NCBI GenBank assembly: GCA_963804645.1
Contig: CAWDRG010000002.1
Coordinates: 32,001-96,000 of the forward strand
DNA length: 64,000 nucleotides
From: an uncultured Bacillota bacterium
Lineage (GTDB): Bacteria > Sysuimicrobiota > Sysuimicrobiia > Sysuimicrobiales > Segetimicrobiaceae
Direction: 5' to 3'
Part shown: piece by piece, positions 2,089 through 41,956 of the stretch
Numbering within the stretch: the stretch's first letter is position 1
Layout: every line of letters starts with the position of its first letter
The notes under the pieces: model-generated
Databases searched by the model: none
What the model was told of the DNA's origin: nothing
Seen by the model: the letters and a program-made list of their open reading frames with translations, nothing else
Translations under genes and position numbers: made by a program

Positions 2089-3486
2089 ATGCCCGTGGCC
2101 CTTGAGCCGTTCGTCCCGTCGTCCGGGGATCCGTGGGATTCCCAGAAGGCCGCGCATCTGCTGCGAAGGGCGGGCTTCGGCCCGCTGCCGCGCGAAATCG
2201 CCGCGGCCGCCGCCGTCGGGCCCGACCGCGCGGTCGACGCCCTGTTCGTGTTTCCGCCGGCGCTCCCCATTCCCCCCGTCGCCCTGGGGGACGCCCAGGC
2301 GGCGGAGATGCGGCTCGACGCCGAGCTGGAGCTCCTGCGGTCGACCCGCCAGCGCGCGCAGGACCATCCCGAGCTCCGCGAGTTTTACGAGCAGGTGAAT
2401 CAGGCGCACGGCCGTGCGATCGTCGAGACCACCTCGTGGTGGCTGGATCGGATGGCCTCGGGGCCCGCGCCGCTCCAGGAGAAGCTCGTCCTCTTCTGGC
2501 ACGGGCACTTCACGAGCTCGTTCGGGGACGTGCAGGACGCGATCGCGATGTACAATCAGAACCAGCTGTTCCGGCACTACGCCGCGGGGAACTTCGCGCG
2601 GCTCTTCGACGCCGTCGCCCGGGATCCCGCGATGCTGCGCTATTTGAACAACGACCAGAACCAGCGCGGCCGCCCGAACGAGAATTGGGCGCGCGAGGCG
2701 ATGGAACTGTTCACGATGGGGATCGGCCACTACACCGAGGACGACGTGCGTGAGGCCGCGCGCGCGTGGACCGGGTGGACCGTGGTGGACTACCGGTCGT
2801 TCCAGGACCGGCGGACGTTCGCGTTGAAACCGGCCGAGCACGACGGAGGCCAGAAGACGTTTCTCGGCCAGACCGGGCCGTGGGACGGCACCGACGTGAT
2901 GCGGATCATCCTCGCGACTCCCGCGGCGCCCCAGTGGGTGGCGGCGAGGCTGGCGAAGTTCTTTGTGGCGCCGCAGCCGCCCGCGGAGTTGGTCGACGGG
3001 CTCGCCGGCTTGCTGCGCCAAAACAACTACGAGCTCGCGCCCGTGCTGCGGGCGCTGTTCCGCTCGCGCGCGTTCTACCGGCCCGACGTGATGCACGCGC
3101 AGGTCAAGAGCCCGACGGAGTACGTCGTGGGAGCGGTGCGGCATCTCGGCATCCAGGACGCGGATTGGATCCGGCTTGGAGAGGCGATGACGCTGATGGG
3201 CCAGCGCCTGTTCTTCCCGCCGACCGTGGCCGGCTGGGACGGCGGCGCGGCGTGGATGAACTCCGGGACCGTGTTCACGCGCAGCGACGTCGCGGCGGCG
3301 CTGCTGGTCGGGCGCCTCGGCGTGCCGAATCTCGCGCCGCTCGGGTCGCCCGAGGCGATCAGCGCCCAGCTGCTCGCGCGTCCGCTGGCCCCGGCGCGCC
3401 AGGCGGTGCTGGCGCAGACGTCGGTCCCGTCGATGACCGGCGTGATCCACCTGGTGATGACGCTTCCTGAGTATCACGTAGCGTGA
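2089..3486 (+). CDS. DUF1800 family protein
   Basis: AAHLLRRAGFG, EKLVLFWHGHF, DPAMLRYLNN, NENWAREAMELFTMG, PPTVAGW, PEY C-terminus; AGGAGG RBS. Confidence 0.93.
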   Translation: MPVALEPFVPSSGDPWDSQKAAHLLRRAGFGPLPREIAAAAAVGPDRAVDALFVFPPALPIPPVALGDAQAAEMRLDAELELLRSTRQRAQDHPELREFYEQVNQAHGRAIVETTSWWLDRMASGPAPLQEKLVLFWHGHFTSSFGDVQDAIAMYNQNQLFRHYAAGNFARLFDAVARDPAMLRYLNNDQNQRGRPNENWAREAMELFTMGIGHYTEDDVREAARAWTGWTVVDYRSFQDRRTFALKPAEHDGGQKTFLGQTGPWDGTDVMRIILATPAAPQWVAARLAKFFVAPQPPAELVDGLAGLLRQNNYELAPVLRALFRSRAFYRPDVMHAQVKSPTEYVVGAVRHLGIQDADWIRLGEAMTLMGQRLFFPPTVAGWDGGAAWMNSGTVFTRSDVAAALLVGRLGVPNLAPLGSPEAISAQLLARPLAPARQAVLAQTSVPSMTGVIHLVMTLPEYHVA

Positions 3487-3499
3487 GGAGGACACCAGC

Positions 3500-4825
3500 A
3501 TGCGGCACATGATGACCCGGCGGGAGTTTCTGGCCAAGGGGCTGACGATCGTCTCCGCCGGCGTCACCGCCCCGATGTTCCTGACGAGGACCGCGCTCGC
3601 GCTCAACAACCCGTGGGACCAGTCGCTCACCGCGCAGGCCGCGGGCCAGCCGGACTGGCCGATTCTCGTCGTCGTCCAGATGGGCGGGGGCAACGATGGG
3701 CTCAACACGATCGTCCCGTTCGTGCACGACGAGTACTACCGGGCGCGCCCGCATCTCGCGGTCCCGCAGAATCAGCTGCTGCGGCTGAACGACGAGGTCG
3801 GCCTGAACCCCGAGCTCAAGCCGCTCAAGGAGCTGTTCGACGACGGCCAGCTGGGCATTATCCAGGGCGTGGGCTATCCCAATCCGAACCGCAGCCACTT
3901 CCGGTCCATGGAGATCTGGCATACGGCCGACCCGACCGGGACCGGGCCGAAGACCGGCTGGCTGGGACGGATGTTCGACAGCGAGTGCCCCGACTGCGGC
4001 GAGACTGCGGGCATCACGCTGTCTCCGGAGATGCCGCTCGCGATGCAGGGCACCGGCGGCCGGGTCGTCGCGATGGACAACCCCGCTCGGTTCGGGTTTC
4101 ACCCGGTCCCCGGCGCGGGCGCGCAGGAGGTCGAGGCGCTGCACGCGCTGCTCCGCCCCGTCGCCGGCGAGGAGCCGATGGTGGACTTCCTCACGCATAC
4201 GGAGATGAACGCGCTCGTCGCCGCCTCCGACGTCGGCAAGATCGCCAGCAAGATCGCGACCGACGCCGGCGCGGGGTATCCGAAAGACCCGTTCAGCCAG
4301 AAGCTGCGGATCGTCGCCGAGCTGATCGCGGCCGGCTCCCCGACGCGCGTCTACTACGTCGGCCTCGGCGGGTTCGATACCCACGCCGCTCAGGCCGGCC
4401 GCCAGGATCGGCTGCTCGCGACCCTCGGCGCCGGGCTCGGCGCGTTCGCGGGCGACCTCAAAGACAAGGGCCTCCAAGAGCGGGTGCTCACGATGACGTT
4501 CTCGGAGTTCGGACGCCGGGTCGCCGAGAACGACGCGGCCGGCACCGACCACGGCACTGCGGCGCCGATGTTCCTGATGGGCGGTCCCGTCACCCCGGGC
4601 GTGCACGGCGCCCACCCGAGCCTGACGGACCTCGACATGGGCGATCTCAAGTTCGGCACCGACTTCCGGAGCGTGTACGCGACGGTTCTCGAACAGTGGC
4701 TCGGCGTCAAGAGCGATACAATCCTGAACGGGCGGTTCCAGACCCTGGATATTGTGAAGCCGCACGTGGGGGCGGTGGCCGTCTCCGGCCTGATGCCCGG
4801 CGGGGCGCGCGTGCGCCGCGCCTAG
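3500..4825 (+). CDS. DUF1501 family protein with Tat signal
   Basis: TRREFL, GGGNDGLNT, YPNPNRSHFRSMEIW, GGFDTHA, FSEFGRR, GTDHG, DFRSVYA; canonical partner of DUF1800. Confidence 0.93.
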   Translation: MRHMMTRREFLAKGLTIVSAGVTAPMFLTRTALALNNPWDQSLTAQAAGQPDWPILVVVQMGGGNDGLNTIVPFVHDEYYRARPHLAVPQNQLLRLNDEVGLNPELKPLKELFDDGQLGIIQGVGYPNPNRSHFRSMEIWHTADPTGTGPKTGWLGRMFDSECPDCGETAGITLSPEMPLAMQGTGGRVVAMDNPARFGFHPVPGAGAQEVEALHALLRPVAGEEPMVDFLTHTEMNALVAASDVGKIASKIATDAGAGYPKDPFSQKLRIVAELIAAGSPTRVYYVGLGGFDTHAAQAGRQDRLLATLGAGLGAFAGDLKDKGLQERVLTMTFSEFGRRVAENDAAGTDHGTAAPMFLMGGPVTPGVHGAHPSLTDLDMGDLKFGTDFRSVYATVLEQWLGVKSDTILNGRFQTLDIVKPHVGAVAVSGLMPGGARVRRA

Positions 4826-38798: not shown

Positions 38799-38930
38799 AT
38801 CACAGGGGCTCGGGACCGCGCCGCGGAAGCACCCGTCGATCTGCGTAACGCCGCGCGCGGCCACCATACGCGGCGCGAACGCGCCGGGCTCGTGAGCGGA
38901 CGGCCGGTCCGCGGGACGGCGCCTGCGGAT

Positions 38931-39362
38931 TTACTTGATATTCCCGACGATCGCGTTGTTTGTATCGGTCACACTCTTTTCGATGTCCGACGCGGTCTGA
39001 AGAAGTTTCGACCGCAGATCCATCAGCATCTGCAGCTGCATGGAAGCCATCTCAGATATTTCGTTGTCGCTGTCCAGGTCATTTTGGAGCGTCGAGATCG
39101 CGCTCTGGACCTGAATCACAGCCAGCGGCGCAGACTCGCCGGTGAGTTGAACCGAGACCGGCGAGTTGCCCGCGGCCACCGGCACCGTGGCGCCGTCTTG
39201 GTCCTCGTAAAAGCCGGACGTGACCGACAGCCCCGACGCGGTCTCGCCATTACTGCGCACGAGGATCGCGACGCGCCCGGTTAGTTTTCGCGATGGTGCG
39301 CCCGTTCGCTTTGCCCCTGCGGCCGTCCTCCGGTCCGGTGGTGCCGTCCGTCTCGCGGTCAT
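38931..39362 (-). CDS. hypothetical protein (143 aa) with needle/axial-protein-like C-terminal helix
   Basis: AGGAGGA RBS; basic disordered N-terminus; amphipathic C-terminus LQMLMDLRSKLLQTASDIEKSVTDTNNAIVGNIK. Confidence 0.7.
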   Translation of the reverse strand: MTARRTAPPDRRTAAGAKRTGAPSRKLTGRVAILVRSNGETASGLSVTSGFYEDQDGATVPVAAGNSPVSVQLTGESAPLAVIQVQSAISTLQNDLDSDNEISEMASMQLQMLMDLRSKLLQTASDIEKSVTDTNNAIVGNIK

Positions 39363-39522
39363 CGGCGTCCTCCTGGATCGTGCGTGACGCGGGCCGCGCG
39401 GCGCGTCCCCGCGGCCGGCCCGCACCTCGTACCAGCGTAGGGTCTTCGTTCAGGTCGAGCTGTTCCCCCCTCGTCGGGGCGATGCGGCGAGGCACCTGGC
39501 GCGTCGAGTGTCCGGCCACGGC

Positions 39523-39551
39523 TTGACAGGCCCGACACACCGGCGTATTTT
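39523..39551 (+). promoter_or_regulatory. sigma70-type promoter TTGACA-N17-TATTTT for the ankyrin gene
   Basis: -35 at 39523-39528, -10 at 39546-39551, optimal spacing. Confidence 0.65.
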
Positions 39552-39557
39552 CTGCAT

Positions 39558-39684
39558 GGCTGGGCAAGCAGCCGCCGGACCCGCGGGAAGGGCTAAGCCC
39601 ACTTGCGCACACCGAAGACCGCTTCAGCCTCTGTGCAGCCGGAGTTGCGGGTCGTCGGCGTCGATACGCATGGAGGTGCGTATG
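39558..39684 (+). ncRNA. candidate structured cis-regulatory 5' leader RNA
   Basis: Nested stems 39558-62/39569-73, 39573-84/39647-60, 39590-93/39597-600, 39607-11/39632-36, 39614-17/39622-25, and SD/ATG hairpin 39664-70/39677-83. Confidence 0.5.
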
Positions 39685-41253
39685 CCGTCTCTGCCCGACC
39701 GTCCCAATCTTTCCCACCTCAAGAGGCAGGCGAGAAACCTGCTGCGCGGGTACCGGCGAGGAGATCCGTCCGCGGCGGCCCGCCTGCGGCAGTGGCTTCC
39801 CGCCGCGCGGGGCAAGGATGACGCCGCGCTCCGCGCCCTCGATCTCCGGCTCCACGACGCGCAGTCGTGCGTCGCTCGCGAATACGGCTTCGCGTCTTGG
39901 ACGGATCTCAAAGCGTTCGTCGATGCCCGCGCCGCGGCGCGGGCGCCGCGTGAGGAACTCCTGCGGGCGTGGCTCCCGCTGGTGTACGGGGACGGGTTTC
40001 TCCGTCCGAACCCCGTCGCCGCGGCGCGCCTGCTGGAACGCCGCCCCGATCTGATCGACACGGATCCCCTCCTCGCTTGTGCGACCGGCGATGTGCCTCG
40101 GGTGCGCGCCGCGATCGACCGCGACGCGTCCTGGGTCAACCGGCCGGGTGGCCCGCTCAACATGCCGCCCCTCGTTGCGGTGACGCACTCGGGGTTGGCG
40201 CGGCTCGCGGGATGGTCGGCCCGTCTCCTGCGCTGCACCGAGCTGCTGCTCGGCGCGGGCGCGGATCCGAATCAGTCGTGGGTCGACCCCGCGTTTCCGG
40301 CGCACCCCCTCAGCGCTCTGTACGGGGCCGCCGGTAAACTGCATCACGACGCGATGACGCGGGCGCTGCTCGATGCCGGCGCCACGCCCAACGACGGCGA
40401 ATCGCTCTACCACGCGGTGGAAAGCGCCGATCCCACCTGCGCCCGGCTGCTGCTCGACGCGGGCGCGGAGATCGAGGGCACCAACGCGCTGTTTCGCGCG
40501 CTGGACTTCGAGCCGCTCGCGCCGCTCGCGCTGCTGCTGTCCCGAGGCGCCGACCCCAACACGCGCCTGAACGGACACGCGCCGCTCCACCACGCGATTT
40601 GGCGCGGGCGGTCCGCGGACCACGTCGCCGCGCTGCTCGCCGCGGGGGCCGATCCGACCGCGTCGAACGCGGACGGCCTGACCCCGTACCGCCTCGCGCT
40701 GCGCTACGGCCACCTCGCGGTCGCGGCGCTGCTGCGGCCGCGCGGGCTCGAGGAATCGGTCGCGCCCGAGGAGGCGTTTGTCGCCGCCTGCGCGTGCGCG
40801 GACCGCGCGGCGGCGGCGGGGCTGCTCCGCCGCGACCCCGCCCTGCTCCGCCGCCTTTCCCCGGACCAACTGCGCGTGCTGCCCGACTGTGCCGCACACG
40901 GACGAGGGGACGCGGTCCGGGTCATGGTCGAACTCGGGTGGCCGGTGGACGTCCGCGGCGGTGATTGGGACGCGAGCGCCCTGAACCTCGCGGTGTTTCG
41001 GGGCGACGCCGACCTGACGGCGTGGCTGCTCGGGCACGGCGCCGACTGGCGCGCGGAACACGGGTACCACGACAACGTGATGGGCACGCTGAGCTTCGCG
41101 TCGACCACCGAGCCCGTCGAGGGCGGGGATTGGCTCGGGTGCGCCCGCGCCCTCGTGGCCGCGGGCATGCCCCGTCCACCCGCGGTCTATCGCTTTTCGG
41201 AGGAGGTCGCCGACTGTTTCGCGGACGCGGCACATGCGTCCGGACGGGGCTGA
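39682..41253 (+). CDS. ankyrin repeat protein with N-terminal helical LPxRPNLxxLKRQA...AREYGFASW domain
   Basis: LLLGAGADPN, LSALYGAAG, LLDAGATPND, APLHHAI, GLTPYRLA repeats; GGAGG RBS. Confidence 0.9.
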   Translation: MPSLPDRPNLSHLKRQARNLLRGYRRGDPSAAARLRQWLPAARGKDDAALRALDLRLHDAQSCVAREYGFASWTDLKAFVDARAAARAPREELLRAWLPLVYGDGFLRPNPVAAARLLERRPDLIDTDPLLACATGDVPRVRAAIDRDASWVNRPGGPLNMPPLVAVTHSGLARLAGWSARLLRCTELLLGAGADPNQSWVDPAFPAHPLSALYGAAGKLHHDAMTRALLDAGATPNDGESLYHAVESADPTCARLLLDAGAEIEGTNALFRALDFEPLAPLALLLSRGADPNTRLNGHAPLHHAIWRGRSADHVAALLAAGADPTASNADGLTPYRLALRYGHLAVAALLRPRGLEESVAPEEAFVAACACADRAAAAGLLRRDPALLRRLSPDQLRVLPDCAAHGRGDAVRVMVELGWPVDVRGGDWDASALNLAVFRGDADLTAWLLGHGADWRAEHGYHDNVMGTLSFASTTEPVEGGDWLGCARALVAAGMPRPPAVYRFSEEVADCFADAAHASGRG

Positions 41254-41357: not shown

Positions 41358-41807
41358 CTAGCTTGCCAGCATCACACGCACATGTTCCGTCTCGGCACGT
41401 GCATGCTCCTCACCGGCGACCAGGACCGAGCACGATACCTTCGCTCGACCATCGTGCATTGCGGTTACCTTCGCTCGAAAGGTGAGGATGCCGTCGATCG
41501 GCACAGGTTTGACGAGATCGAGCTGCAACGAGGTTGTGCTGTAGGTGAAGTCGAGCGGCTCACGAAGCTCTCGTCCGTCAATCTTGTGTGCAGCGGCGGT
41601 CGCGGCCCACACGCCGTGACAGACCGCAATCGTGGCGATCAACCCGCCCTGCAATCGCCCGGGATGTCCGACATGGTACGGTTTCGGGCGCCACATGCAG
41701 ACGATTTCGTCACCTTGCCAATAGCTCTTGATGTGCAGCCCGTGTTCATTCAGTCGTCCGCATCCGTAACACTGCCAGTCGACCAGGTCTTGAAACGCAG
41801 GCTCCAT
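41358..41807 (-). CDS. hotdog-fold thioesterase (PaaI-like)
   Basis: CYGCG-NEHGL, GHPGRLQGGLIAT, KPVPI; lower GC than flanks. Confidence 0.82.
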   Translation of the reverse strand: MEPAFQDLVDWQCYGCGRLNEHGLHIKSYWQGDEIVCMWRPKPYHVGHPGRLQGGLIATIAVCHGVWAATAAAHKIDGRELREPLDFTYSTTSLQLDLVKPVPIDGILTFRAKVTAMHDGRAKVSCSVLVAGEEHARAETEHVRVMLAS

Positions 41808-41956
41808 CGTTGGGGCCCCTTTCAACGTTCGACCTCAATCGCAGCGGCGAATCCTCGGCGTTGCGAGTTGGAGAGCGCTTCGCCACGCATACATCACAAG
41901 CCTCGTGGTGTATCGCCTCCATGGGGGGGTTCGGACGATCGGCACACGATCTCAAT

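Follow-up and report, generated by a model that had tools for sequence, protein, structure and literature searches.

A conserved leader RNA predicted to sequester the Shine-Dalgarno sequence of an ankyrin-repeat gene in bacteria of at least two phyla

The 64,000-nt stretch of DNA analysed here (the window) carries, upstream of an ankyrin-repeat gene, one copy of a conserved RNA of about 125 nt. From the comparison of 98 distinct sequences it looks like a new family of structured leader that sequesters the Shine-Dalgarno (SD) sequence, and it is a riboswitch candidate. Coordinates are given as positions in this stretch, and the copy of the leader that it contains is named the window copy; its features are listed in Table 1. 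The leader is very probably a cis-acting control RNA that hides the SD sequence of the gene that follows. Two elements are central to this reading: a pseudoknot formed by the loop of the first hairpin (P1) and a long-range helix between the SD and an anti-SD strand. Both are conserved, and both were missing from the structure drawn in an earlier note on this DNA. The note had described the segment as a riboswitch-like or protein-bound cis-regulatory RNA, a general description that conservation, covariation and the absence of the leader from Rfam now support.

Table 1. Predicted features of the window copy of the leader, of its promoter and of the downstream gene.
Feature	Position	Strand	Remarks
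Putative sigma-70-type promoter	39523..39551	+	TTGACA 39523-39528, 17 nt, TATTTT 39546-39551
Leader RNA (5′ UTR), one copy of the conserved family, ~125 nt	39558..39681	+	Model R1, 129.6 bits
P1 hairpin, GGCUG (39558-39562) / CAGCC (39569-39573), loop GGCAAG	39558..39573	+	4 of 5 pairs change on both sides
Pseudoknot PK1, 5′ strand GCAAG (P1 loop)	39564..39568	+	Pairs with 39602-39606
Closing stem, 5′ strand, CCG (39575-39577) and GACCCGCG (39578-39585)	39575..39585	+	Pairs with 39656-39658 and 39646-39653 across a 2-nt bulge
P2a hairpin, GGGC-UAA-GCCC	39590..39600	+	100% of cells paired, 3 of 4 pairs change on both sides
Pseudoknot PK1, 3′ strand CUUGC, ~35 nt downstream of the P1 loop	39602..39606	+	Pairs with 39564-39568
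Variable region, with window-specific GCACA arm and GAAG/CUUC hairpin	39607..39627	+	20-35 nt across the family
Anti-SD strand, CCUCUGUGC(A)	39628..39637	+	Pairs with 39668-39676
Linker GCCGGAGU from the anti-SD strand to the closing stem, GCCG invariant	39638..39645	+	Exactly 8 nt in 98 of 98 leaders
Closing stem, 3′ strand, UGCGGGUC, GU bulge, CGG	39646..39658	+	Alignment of 98 leaders
Clade-specific local hairpin around the SD, AUACGCA / UGCGUAU	39664..39683	+	Paired in 41% of cells family-wide
SD strand GCAUGGAGG, SD core GGAGG 39672-39676	39668..39676	+	Pairs with the anti-SD strand
Gene putatively regulated by the leader, 523-aa protein, helical N-terminal domain and ankyrin repeats	39682..41253	+	Pfam: only Ank families

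Close homologues of the window gene were found in G004 and G005, two genomes of the same genus, and also within the assembly from which the window comes, on a second, short contig (G000:C7). In all three cases the upstream DNA aligns with the window from position 39558 on, and its conservation there exceeds that of both the promoter and the coding region. A covariance model (R1) built from these four copies matched only the same four in the window's genome and family. Within the genus, R1 or R2, a second model that draws on all copies, thus detected the RNA in G000 (two copies), G004 and G005, and R2 gave no match beyond these three in 94 genomes of the window's phylum, the unpublished genome G034 being among those without a match. 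When one genome per species was scanned with a sequence pattern, six loci emerged, three of them true; the other three (L021, L023 and L025) are chance matches. The betaproteobacterium Variovorax sp. OK212 carries the RNA (76.6 bits) ahead of a gene that starts with MKRIPARPDLGHLKKQAK and has the same N-terminal motif as the window gene. The RNA is present, always in one copy, in 44 of the 148 Variovorax species genomes, and R2 had no match in 150 other sampled Burkholderiales. A search of PLSDB returned one match, on a 2.48-Mb replicon of Variovorax paradoxus. Metagenomes contributed at least 119 pattern matches; R1 recognized 79 of the 80 loci examined, with 51-123 bits, the remaining one (L115, 7.1 bits) being a chance match. 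The distribution thus appears patchy among the genomes searched and reaches at least two phyla, over which the conservation of sequence and structure that the earlier note expected upstream of homologous LPxRPNLxxLKxQA-ankyrin genes holds.

The second leader and gene copy of the window's assembly (G000:C7, about 2692-4388, loci L011 and L017) lies close to a contig end near position 4486. Its leader region has 88% DNA identity to the window and an identical pair of promoter hexamers, and its gene is split into a 90-aa ORF followed by pieces with internal TGA and TAG codons. This copy could be a binned strain variant (assembly contamination is 4.17%) or a decaying paralogue.

The promoter upstream of the window copy is the sole promoter-like site between 38800 and 39900, with 10 of 12 matches where 0.1 such sites are expected by chance, so that the TTGACA-N17-TATTTT element of the earlier note is retained. 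When the 98 distinct upstream regions were scanned, 56 loci scored at least 8/12. In all 56 the TANNNT box ends 5-8 nt before P1 (6 nt in 46 of them), and in most the −35 sequence is TTGACC or TTGACA, spaced by 17-18 nt from the −10. Because the position of the −10 box ahead of P1 is conserved, transcription is predicted to start at the first base of P1, near 39558, where the earlier note had also placed it. The leader would then have the 5′ UTR location expected of a riboswitch, with a −10 box at a fixed distance before P1, and an expression platform that overlaps the aptamer, as the anti-SD strand inside the closing stem pairs with the SD. Contigs assembled from RNA libraries of a relative (small shares of public RNA runs) span the leader and the coding sequence but also include the promoter, and are uninformative both on the start site and on transcription of the leader. 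Neither a T-run nor a terminator was found in the leader, so that control is most likely exerted on translation. On the opposite strand, a divergent ORF (38931-39425) of at most 164 aa and without Pfam family shares with the ankyrin gene the intergenic region that contains the leader promoter.

The fold was evaluated on an alignment (A6) of 98 distinct leaders made with MAFFT. From 113 model matches six were dropped, either for a match shorter than 105 nt (L053, L055, L060, L104 and L122) or for a locus ending before the SD (L081), leaving 107 sequences, of which 98 are distinct. The structure tested comprises P1, the loop pseudoknot (PK1), the closing stem, the P2a hairpin and the anti-SD helix, with a total of 36 pairs, and 95.0% of its 3525 cells are paired. 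Changes on both sides occur in 12 of the 36 pairs, where shuffled alignments give 4.1±1.3 (none of 500 reaches 12), a control that overstates significance as the sequences are related; sliding the partners by 1-3 columns left just 0-5 such pairs. The compensatory changes are spread over five separate helices. The covariation that the earlier note had proposed to look for upstream of homologues is therefore found, and a conserved structured element with covariation is what a riboswitch aptamer would present. In 19 loci compared over both regions, the core columns have a median identity of 83.5% to the window and the first 450 coding nucleotides are 58.2% identical, with the reservation that the metagenome copies were selected by pattern. 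More generally, a scan with a pattern of about 25 fixed core letters supplied 64 of the 98 leaders, which inflates invariance and core identity; the covarying columns lie outside these fixed letters, except for Y and R positions.

Individual helices contribute differently to this result. Two hairpins drawn in the earlier note, the 5′ one (GGCTG/CAGCC, here P1) and GGGC-TAA-GCCC (P2a), proved conserved and covarying in the 98 leaders. The arms of P1 occur as GGCUG/CAGCC, CGCGG/CCGCG and GACUG/CAGUC; about 24 seeming mismatches in one of its pairs are read as the placement by MAFFT of a loop one base longer. The loop-closing pair of P2a is UA in 90 leaders, CG in 7 and UG in 1. PK1 is paired in 99.8% of 490 cells, and both its covariation score and its number of compensated cells are above those of 500 out of 500 shuffles. 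Its end pair is GC in 88 leaders, GU in 5, CG in 2, AU in 1, UA in 1 and unpaired in one, while an inner pair is AU in 94, GU in 3 and GC in 1. RNAalifold proposed a competing partner for CUUGC, the segment GCGGG (39583-39587). This alternative is complementary but shows no covariation, and its end pair is broken in 3 sequences; PK1, whose end pair is intact in all but one of the 98 leaders, was preferred. CAGCC recurs at 39625 and 39636, as the earlier note had observed. Its suggestion that these repeats are alternative partners of GGCUG was abandoned: the pairing is not conserved, since the 5′ arm is CGCGG in Variovorax while GCAGCCG is invariant.

The long closing stem of the earlier note is conserved in the part listed in Table 1; the outermost pair drawn there is kept in just 3 of the 98 leaders. 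One pair of the stem covaries (GC 49, GU 29, AU 20, unpaired 0), and the other seven of its eight upper pairs are invariant, as are five of the ten pairs of the anti-SD helix; for these the evidence is complementarity. The segment GCCG (39638-39641) is also complementary to CGGC (39656-39659); both are invariant and show no covariation, and this pairing is neither supported nor excluded relative to the lower part of the closing stem. The family further has near-invariant unpaired blocks, GGGAAG and GCAGCCG. The region between PK1 and the anti-SD strand is variable in sequence as well as in length, with about 27% column identity to the window.

The helix that would bury the SD, first proposed by RNAalifold, has 9-10 bp and joins CCUCUGUGC (39628-39636) to GCAUGGAGG. 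It is paired in 97.6% of 980 cells. One pair covaries (GC 86, AU 6, GU 5), and its covariation score and compensated cells exceed those of 500 out of 500 shuffles. The linkers that frame it are constrained: besides the one of 8 nt given in Table 1, the linker before the SD measures 6-9 nt in 97 of 98 leaders. The lone exception (L064:1147-1299, minus strand) has a 25-nt linker, whose additional bases can be read as an inserted hairpin, GUGGGC/GCCCAC, complete in itself; with it the two linker ends would stay near each other. GGAGG is separated from the start codon by 5 nt in the window and by 3-7 nt across the family.

The earlier note had instead hidden the SD in the loop of a local hairpin, ATACGCA-TGGAGG-TGCGTAT. 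This hairpin is part of the minimum free energy fold of the window, and a short form (ACGCAU/GUGCGU) folds in 5 of 7 sequences of the window's own clade, but it is not a feature of the family. The stem GCACA/UGUGC with its inner GAAG/CUUC, also drawn in the note, had a similar outcome: it belongs to the window's minimum free energy fold, and GCACA/UGUGC is paired in 45% of cells family-wide. Taken jointly, GCACA/UGUGC and the local SD hairpin are paired in 43.0% of cells versus 42.7% in shuffles, and 110 of 500 shuffles do as well; both were rejected as family features. The comparison of the 98 leaders thus points to the long-range anti-SD helix, and not to the local hairpin, as the conserved means of hiding the SD.

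Folding energy contributes less. The minimum free energy fold of 39558-39690 is identical to the drawing of the earlier note, with all its hairpins including the one around the SD. Its energy is −56.8 kcal/mol against −56.77±4.01 for 200 dinucleotide shuffles (z = −0.01), 98 of which are at least as stable, an outcome that the earlier note had listed as speaking against its reading. This test is weak for a pseudoknotted RNA of 69% G+C, and the comparative evidence outweighs it.

The energy result nonetheless belongs with two other observations that would fit a reading of the region as something other than a functional RNA, be it a DNA-level operator, an N-terminal coding extension or a by-product of folding at high G+C: CCCGCGGG is palindromic, and in the window a reading frame is open from 39508 through the whole leader into the ankyrin gene (GTG at 39508, ATG at 39556 and 39670). 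Note that gene callers may annotate an N-terminal extension over 39508-39681. A coding extension from 39508 was rejected upon inspection of the family: 67 of the 98 leaders have an in-frame stop, their lengths fall in all three classes modulo 3, and their indels are not multiples of 3. The leader is thus most simply taken as non-coding and the open frame of the window as incidental. A DNA operator or a folding by-product would also have to account for the compensatory changes in all of the helices tested, and for a conserved span of about 100 nt that starts at the predicted transcription start while the promoter sequence itself varies among the relatives compared. These observations largely refute the reading without a functional RNA, which we regard as very improbable.

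The preferred reading, a leader RNA that controls initiation of translation, leads to the following model. Transcription would start at the first base of P1, whose loop sequence GCAAG would pair with CUUGC to form the first pseudoknot. The closing stem, CCG-GACCCGCG with UGCGGGUC-NN-CGG, would enclose P2a, the 3′ strand of that pseudoknot, the variable region and CCUCUGUGC. The latter would act as anti-SD and pair with the ribosome binding site (RBS) GCAUGGAGG just outside the stem. Because the anti-SD strand lies within the closing stem and the SD just outside it, the anti-SD helix would be a second pseudoknot relative to this stem. The RNA would act in cis, governing the initiation of translation through burial or exposure of the RBS, and the compact, doubly knotted fold would be the sensor: an effector stabilizing it would keep the RBS buried (OFF), and loss of the effector would let ribosomes enter. 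That the SD helix controls translation is inferred from the pairing, and both an effector and the sense in which it switches the gene are likewise predictions.

As the linker lengths are fixed, the closing stem and the anti-SD helix would both be part of one compact SD-burying fold, and an effector stabilizing that fold would turn the gene OFF. We lean towards this direction. In an ON switch, the closing stem and pseudoknot (the aptamer) would be mutually exclusive with the anti-SD helix, and the effector would free the RBS by stabilizing the aptamer. Such an arrangement would give a use to the two possible partners of CGG (39656-39658), namely CCG (39575-39577) and GCCG (39638-39641), both invariant, the second of which would extend the anti-SD hairpin. 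It would also suit the invariance of C39659, whose closing-stem partner fits in 3 of 98 leaders, as a base with a role in an alternative helix. Nested folding models are compatible with alternation as well: the closing-stem and anti-SD folds differ by no more than a few kcal/mol, the latter being the more stable one in 81 of the 98 leaders and the less stable one in the window (−53.6 versus −56.6 kcal/mol), energies which do not settle whether the two helices coexist or alternate. On the other hand, the fixed linkers of 8 and 6-9 nt and the distance-preserving hairpin insert of L064 suggest one fold, and covariation does not discriminate between the two partners of CGG. We consider an ON switch unlikely.

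The identity of the downstream gene bears on what the effector might be. Every copy of the RNA with readable downstream sequence precedes an ORF whose product starts with [LI]PxRPxLxHLKKQAK...YR..D...RFR..LPAA. Pfam ankyrin cut-offs are passed by 17 of 19 representative products, the exceptions being a 173-aa product without ankyrin match (L059) and one just under the cut-off (L074). In Variovorax a strong match to the N-terminal domain (N-domain) occurs in 44 genomes and the RNA lies directly upstream in 43 of them; weaker N-domain paralogues in four Variovorax genomes are located away from the single RNA match of each genome. Residues 1-150 of the 523-aa window protein have no Pfam family above cut-off, and no family for the protein beyond its ankyrin repeats was found in Pfam or NCBIfam. 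AlphaFold2 models these residues as all-helical (mean pLDDT 88.8). A Foldseek search of the PDB with this model gave no match at E up to 0.001, VIA-align gave a best Z of 4.6 to a TPR-like fold over residues 88-148, and neither the ESM Atlas nor PADLOC provided a functional lead for the domain or the gene. In the GenBank record of V. paradoxus VAI-C the gene is annotated as "hypothetical protein" and the leader is unannotated.

Several loci depart from the usual arrangement of intact leader and intact gene. In one Variovorax genome (L179, G156:C31:144900-145800) the ankyrin-family gene has no leader (best score 3.3 bits) and starts 9 nt after the stop codon of the upstream ORF, as if captured into an operon; the leader would be dispensable there. 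Two loci (L038 and L079) have an intact leader, but the gene behind it departs from the usual reading frame after 9 codons and ends as an 80-aa ORF, and in another (L037, genome G116) the leader is intact while the gene is damaged, with an N-domain match ending at residue 35. The RNA can, on this sequence evidence, outlast its gene.

The exclusive association of the RNA with one gene family is the pattern expected of an autogenous operator, in which the encoded protein, most likely through its conserved basic helical N-domain, would bind the leader, stabilize the SD-burying fold and so exert negative feedback on its own translation. Among the readable copies no other kind of gene follows the RNA, and the N-domain is the part of the protein common to all copies, including the L059 product. 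The gene also looks monocistronic, in the window as well as in V. paradoxus VAI-C; in the window the next ORF downstream (41358-41825, minus strand, 155 aa, without Pfam family at E up to 0.01) is convergent. However, the searches assigned the N-domain to no RNA-binding fold or family, the best Pfam hit being a sub-threshold OST-HTH match (E 0.12) in one of three proteins. This match falls on the most conserved block of the protein, LRLHDAQSC.AREYGF.SW.DL (residues 53-76, window 39838-39909). OST-HTH/LOTUS is a family of RNA-binding domains, and we treat the match as no more than a hint towards autoregulation. Moreover, co-evolving RNA-protein pairs usually drift together, whereas here the RNA core is near-invariant and the N-domain is 45-58% identical to that of the window across copies; and about 100 nt of conserved knotted RNA exceeds what most protein operators need. 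Binding by the gene's own protein ranks, in our view, as an unlikely explanation, both as an account of the whole system and when only SD-sequestering RNAs are considered.

A small-molecule effector could quite well be at work if the RNA sequesters the SD as proposed, although we stop short of expecting one. In its favour are the extended unpaired blocks that do not vary and the near-invariance of the RNA between phyla. Riboswitches typically go with genes that make, transport or use the ligand, as a rule from several gene families, while all readable copies here precede a single family of N-domain and ankyrin proteins; such restriction, to a family with no assigned function, is unusual for a metabolite riboswitch. 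With this reservation we tentatively propose that the RNA is a riboswitch of a new class: its aptamer, about 125 nt long and with two pseudoknots, would sense a small molecule and switch translation of this one protein family. The RNA is patchily distributed in soil bacteria of at least two phyla. That an SD-sequestering RNA of this family would have no effector, or one of another kind, is rather doubtful.

A simpler device, an effector-free attenuator or thermometer, would use the fold to keep translation low, or would melt with temperature or co-transcriptionally, with no ligand involved. RNA thermometers such as ROSE and fourU are short and poorly conserved in sequence, and their SD helix is rich in G·U pairs. 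The leader is like them in holding its SD in a G·U-rich helix, UG being found at two positions of the anti-SD helix in 91 and 98 of the 98 leaders, and the greater stability of the SD-paired nested fold in most leaders would fit as well. It differs in its long invariant unpaired stretches, its loop pseudoknot and its fixed linkers. Such a device needs the SD helix alone, and the GGGAAG and GCAGCCG blocks, the compensated pseudoknot and the linkers would remain unexplained by it. The architecture thus goes well beyond a simple SD hairpin, and no thermometer family of Rfam matched the leader. We judge this explanation improbable.

The known regulatory RNAs closest to the leader differ from it in several respects. 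SAM-II (RF00521), preQ1-II (RF01054) and preQ1-III are riboswitches in which a pseudoknot sequesters the SD. They share with the leader a fold in the 5′ UTR that places the RBS or adjacent bases in a pseudoknot helix, and a control of translation without terminator. The leader is larger (about 125 nt), combines two pseudoknots with a closing stem, stays below the Rfam gathering scores, and precedes a single protein family instead of metabolic or transport genes. The ZTP riboswitch (pfl motif, RF01750) is built of two conserved blocks joined by a variable linker and tied by a pseudoknot, an organization also seen in the leader, both RNAs being G+C-rich. RF01750 has, however, no match here even at E up to 10, its gene context differs, and in the leader the SD is part of the conserved pairing. 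The leader of Escherichia coli rpsO (S15) is an autogenous translational operator with a pseudoknot. Like it and other leaders of ribosomal protein genes, the present RNA is dedicated to one gene family and has a pseudoknot at the ribosome-binding region, and feedback control of the rpsO type would explain its strict gene association. It differs in that its gene encodes an ankyrin-repeat protein, neither ribosomal nor a known RNA binder, for which no RNA-binding fold was found, and in being near-invariant across two phyla.

Searches of databases and literature are in agreement with a new family. The 4227 covariance models of Rfam 15 gave no match on the leader in window positions 38800-40200 at E up to 10, and over 39545-39700 the best hit was sX5, whose 17.4 bits fall short of its gathering score of 50. 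Four other copies (L026, L082, L110 and L064) had no Rfam match on the motif either. Nothing on the leader thus reaches a gathering score, in line with the earlier note, which did not recognize the RNA as a named family. Full-text literature searches found no paper on a leader RNA of ankyrin genes. The words "ankyrin", "Variovorax" and "Burkholderiales" are absent from the main texts of three large motif-discovery papers (PMC11109978, PMC8632094 and PMC5737381), although a motif of this kind might be listed in their supplements.

Outside host-associated pathogens, hardly any function has been assigned to bacterial ankyrin-repeat proteins. That the RNA core is better conserved than its gene suggests tight gating of the protein's expression by some signal. 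If the signal were a metabolite, the leader would represent a new class of orphan riboswitch, and the ligand would give a clue to the role of the protein; if it were the protein itself, the N-domain would be a new RNA-binding fold. The leader is a candidate for a new Rfam family, and its presence in culturable, harmless Variovorax strains makes these possibilities directly testable.
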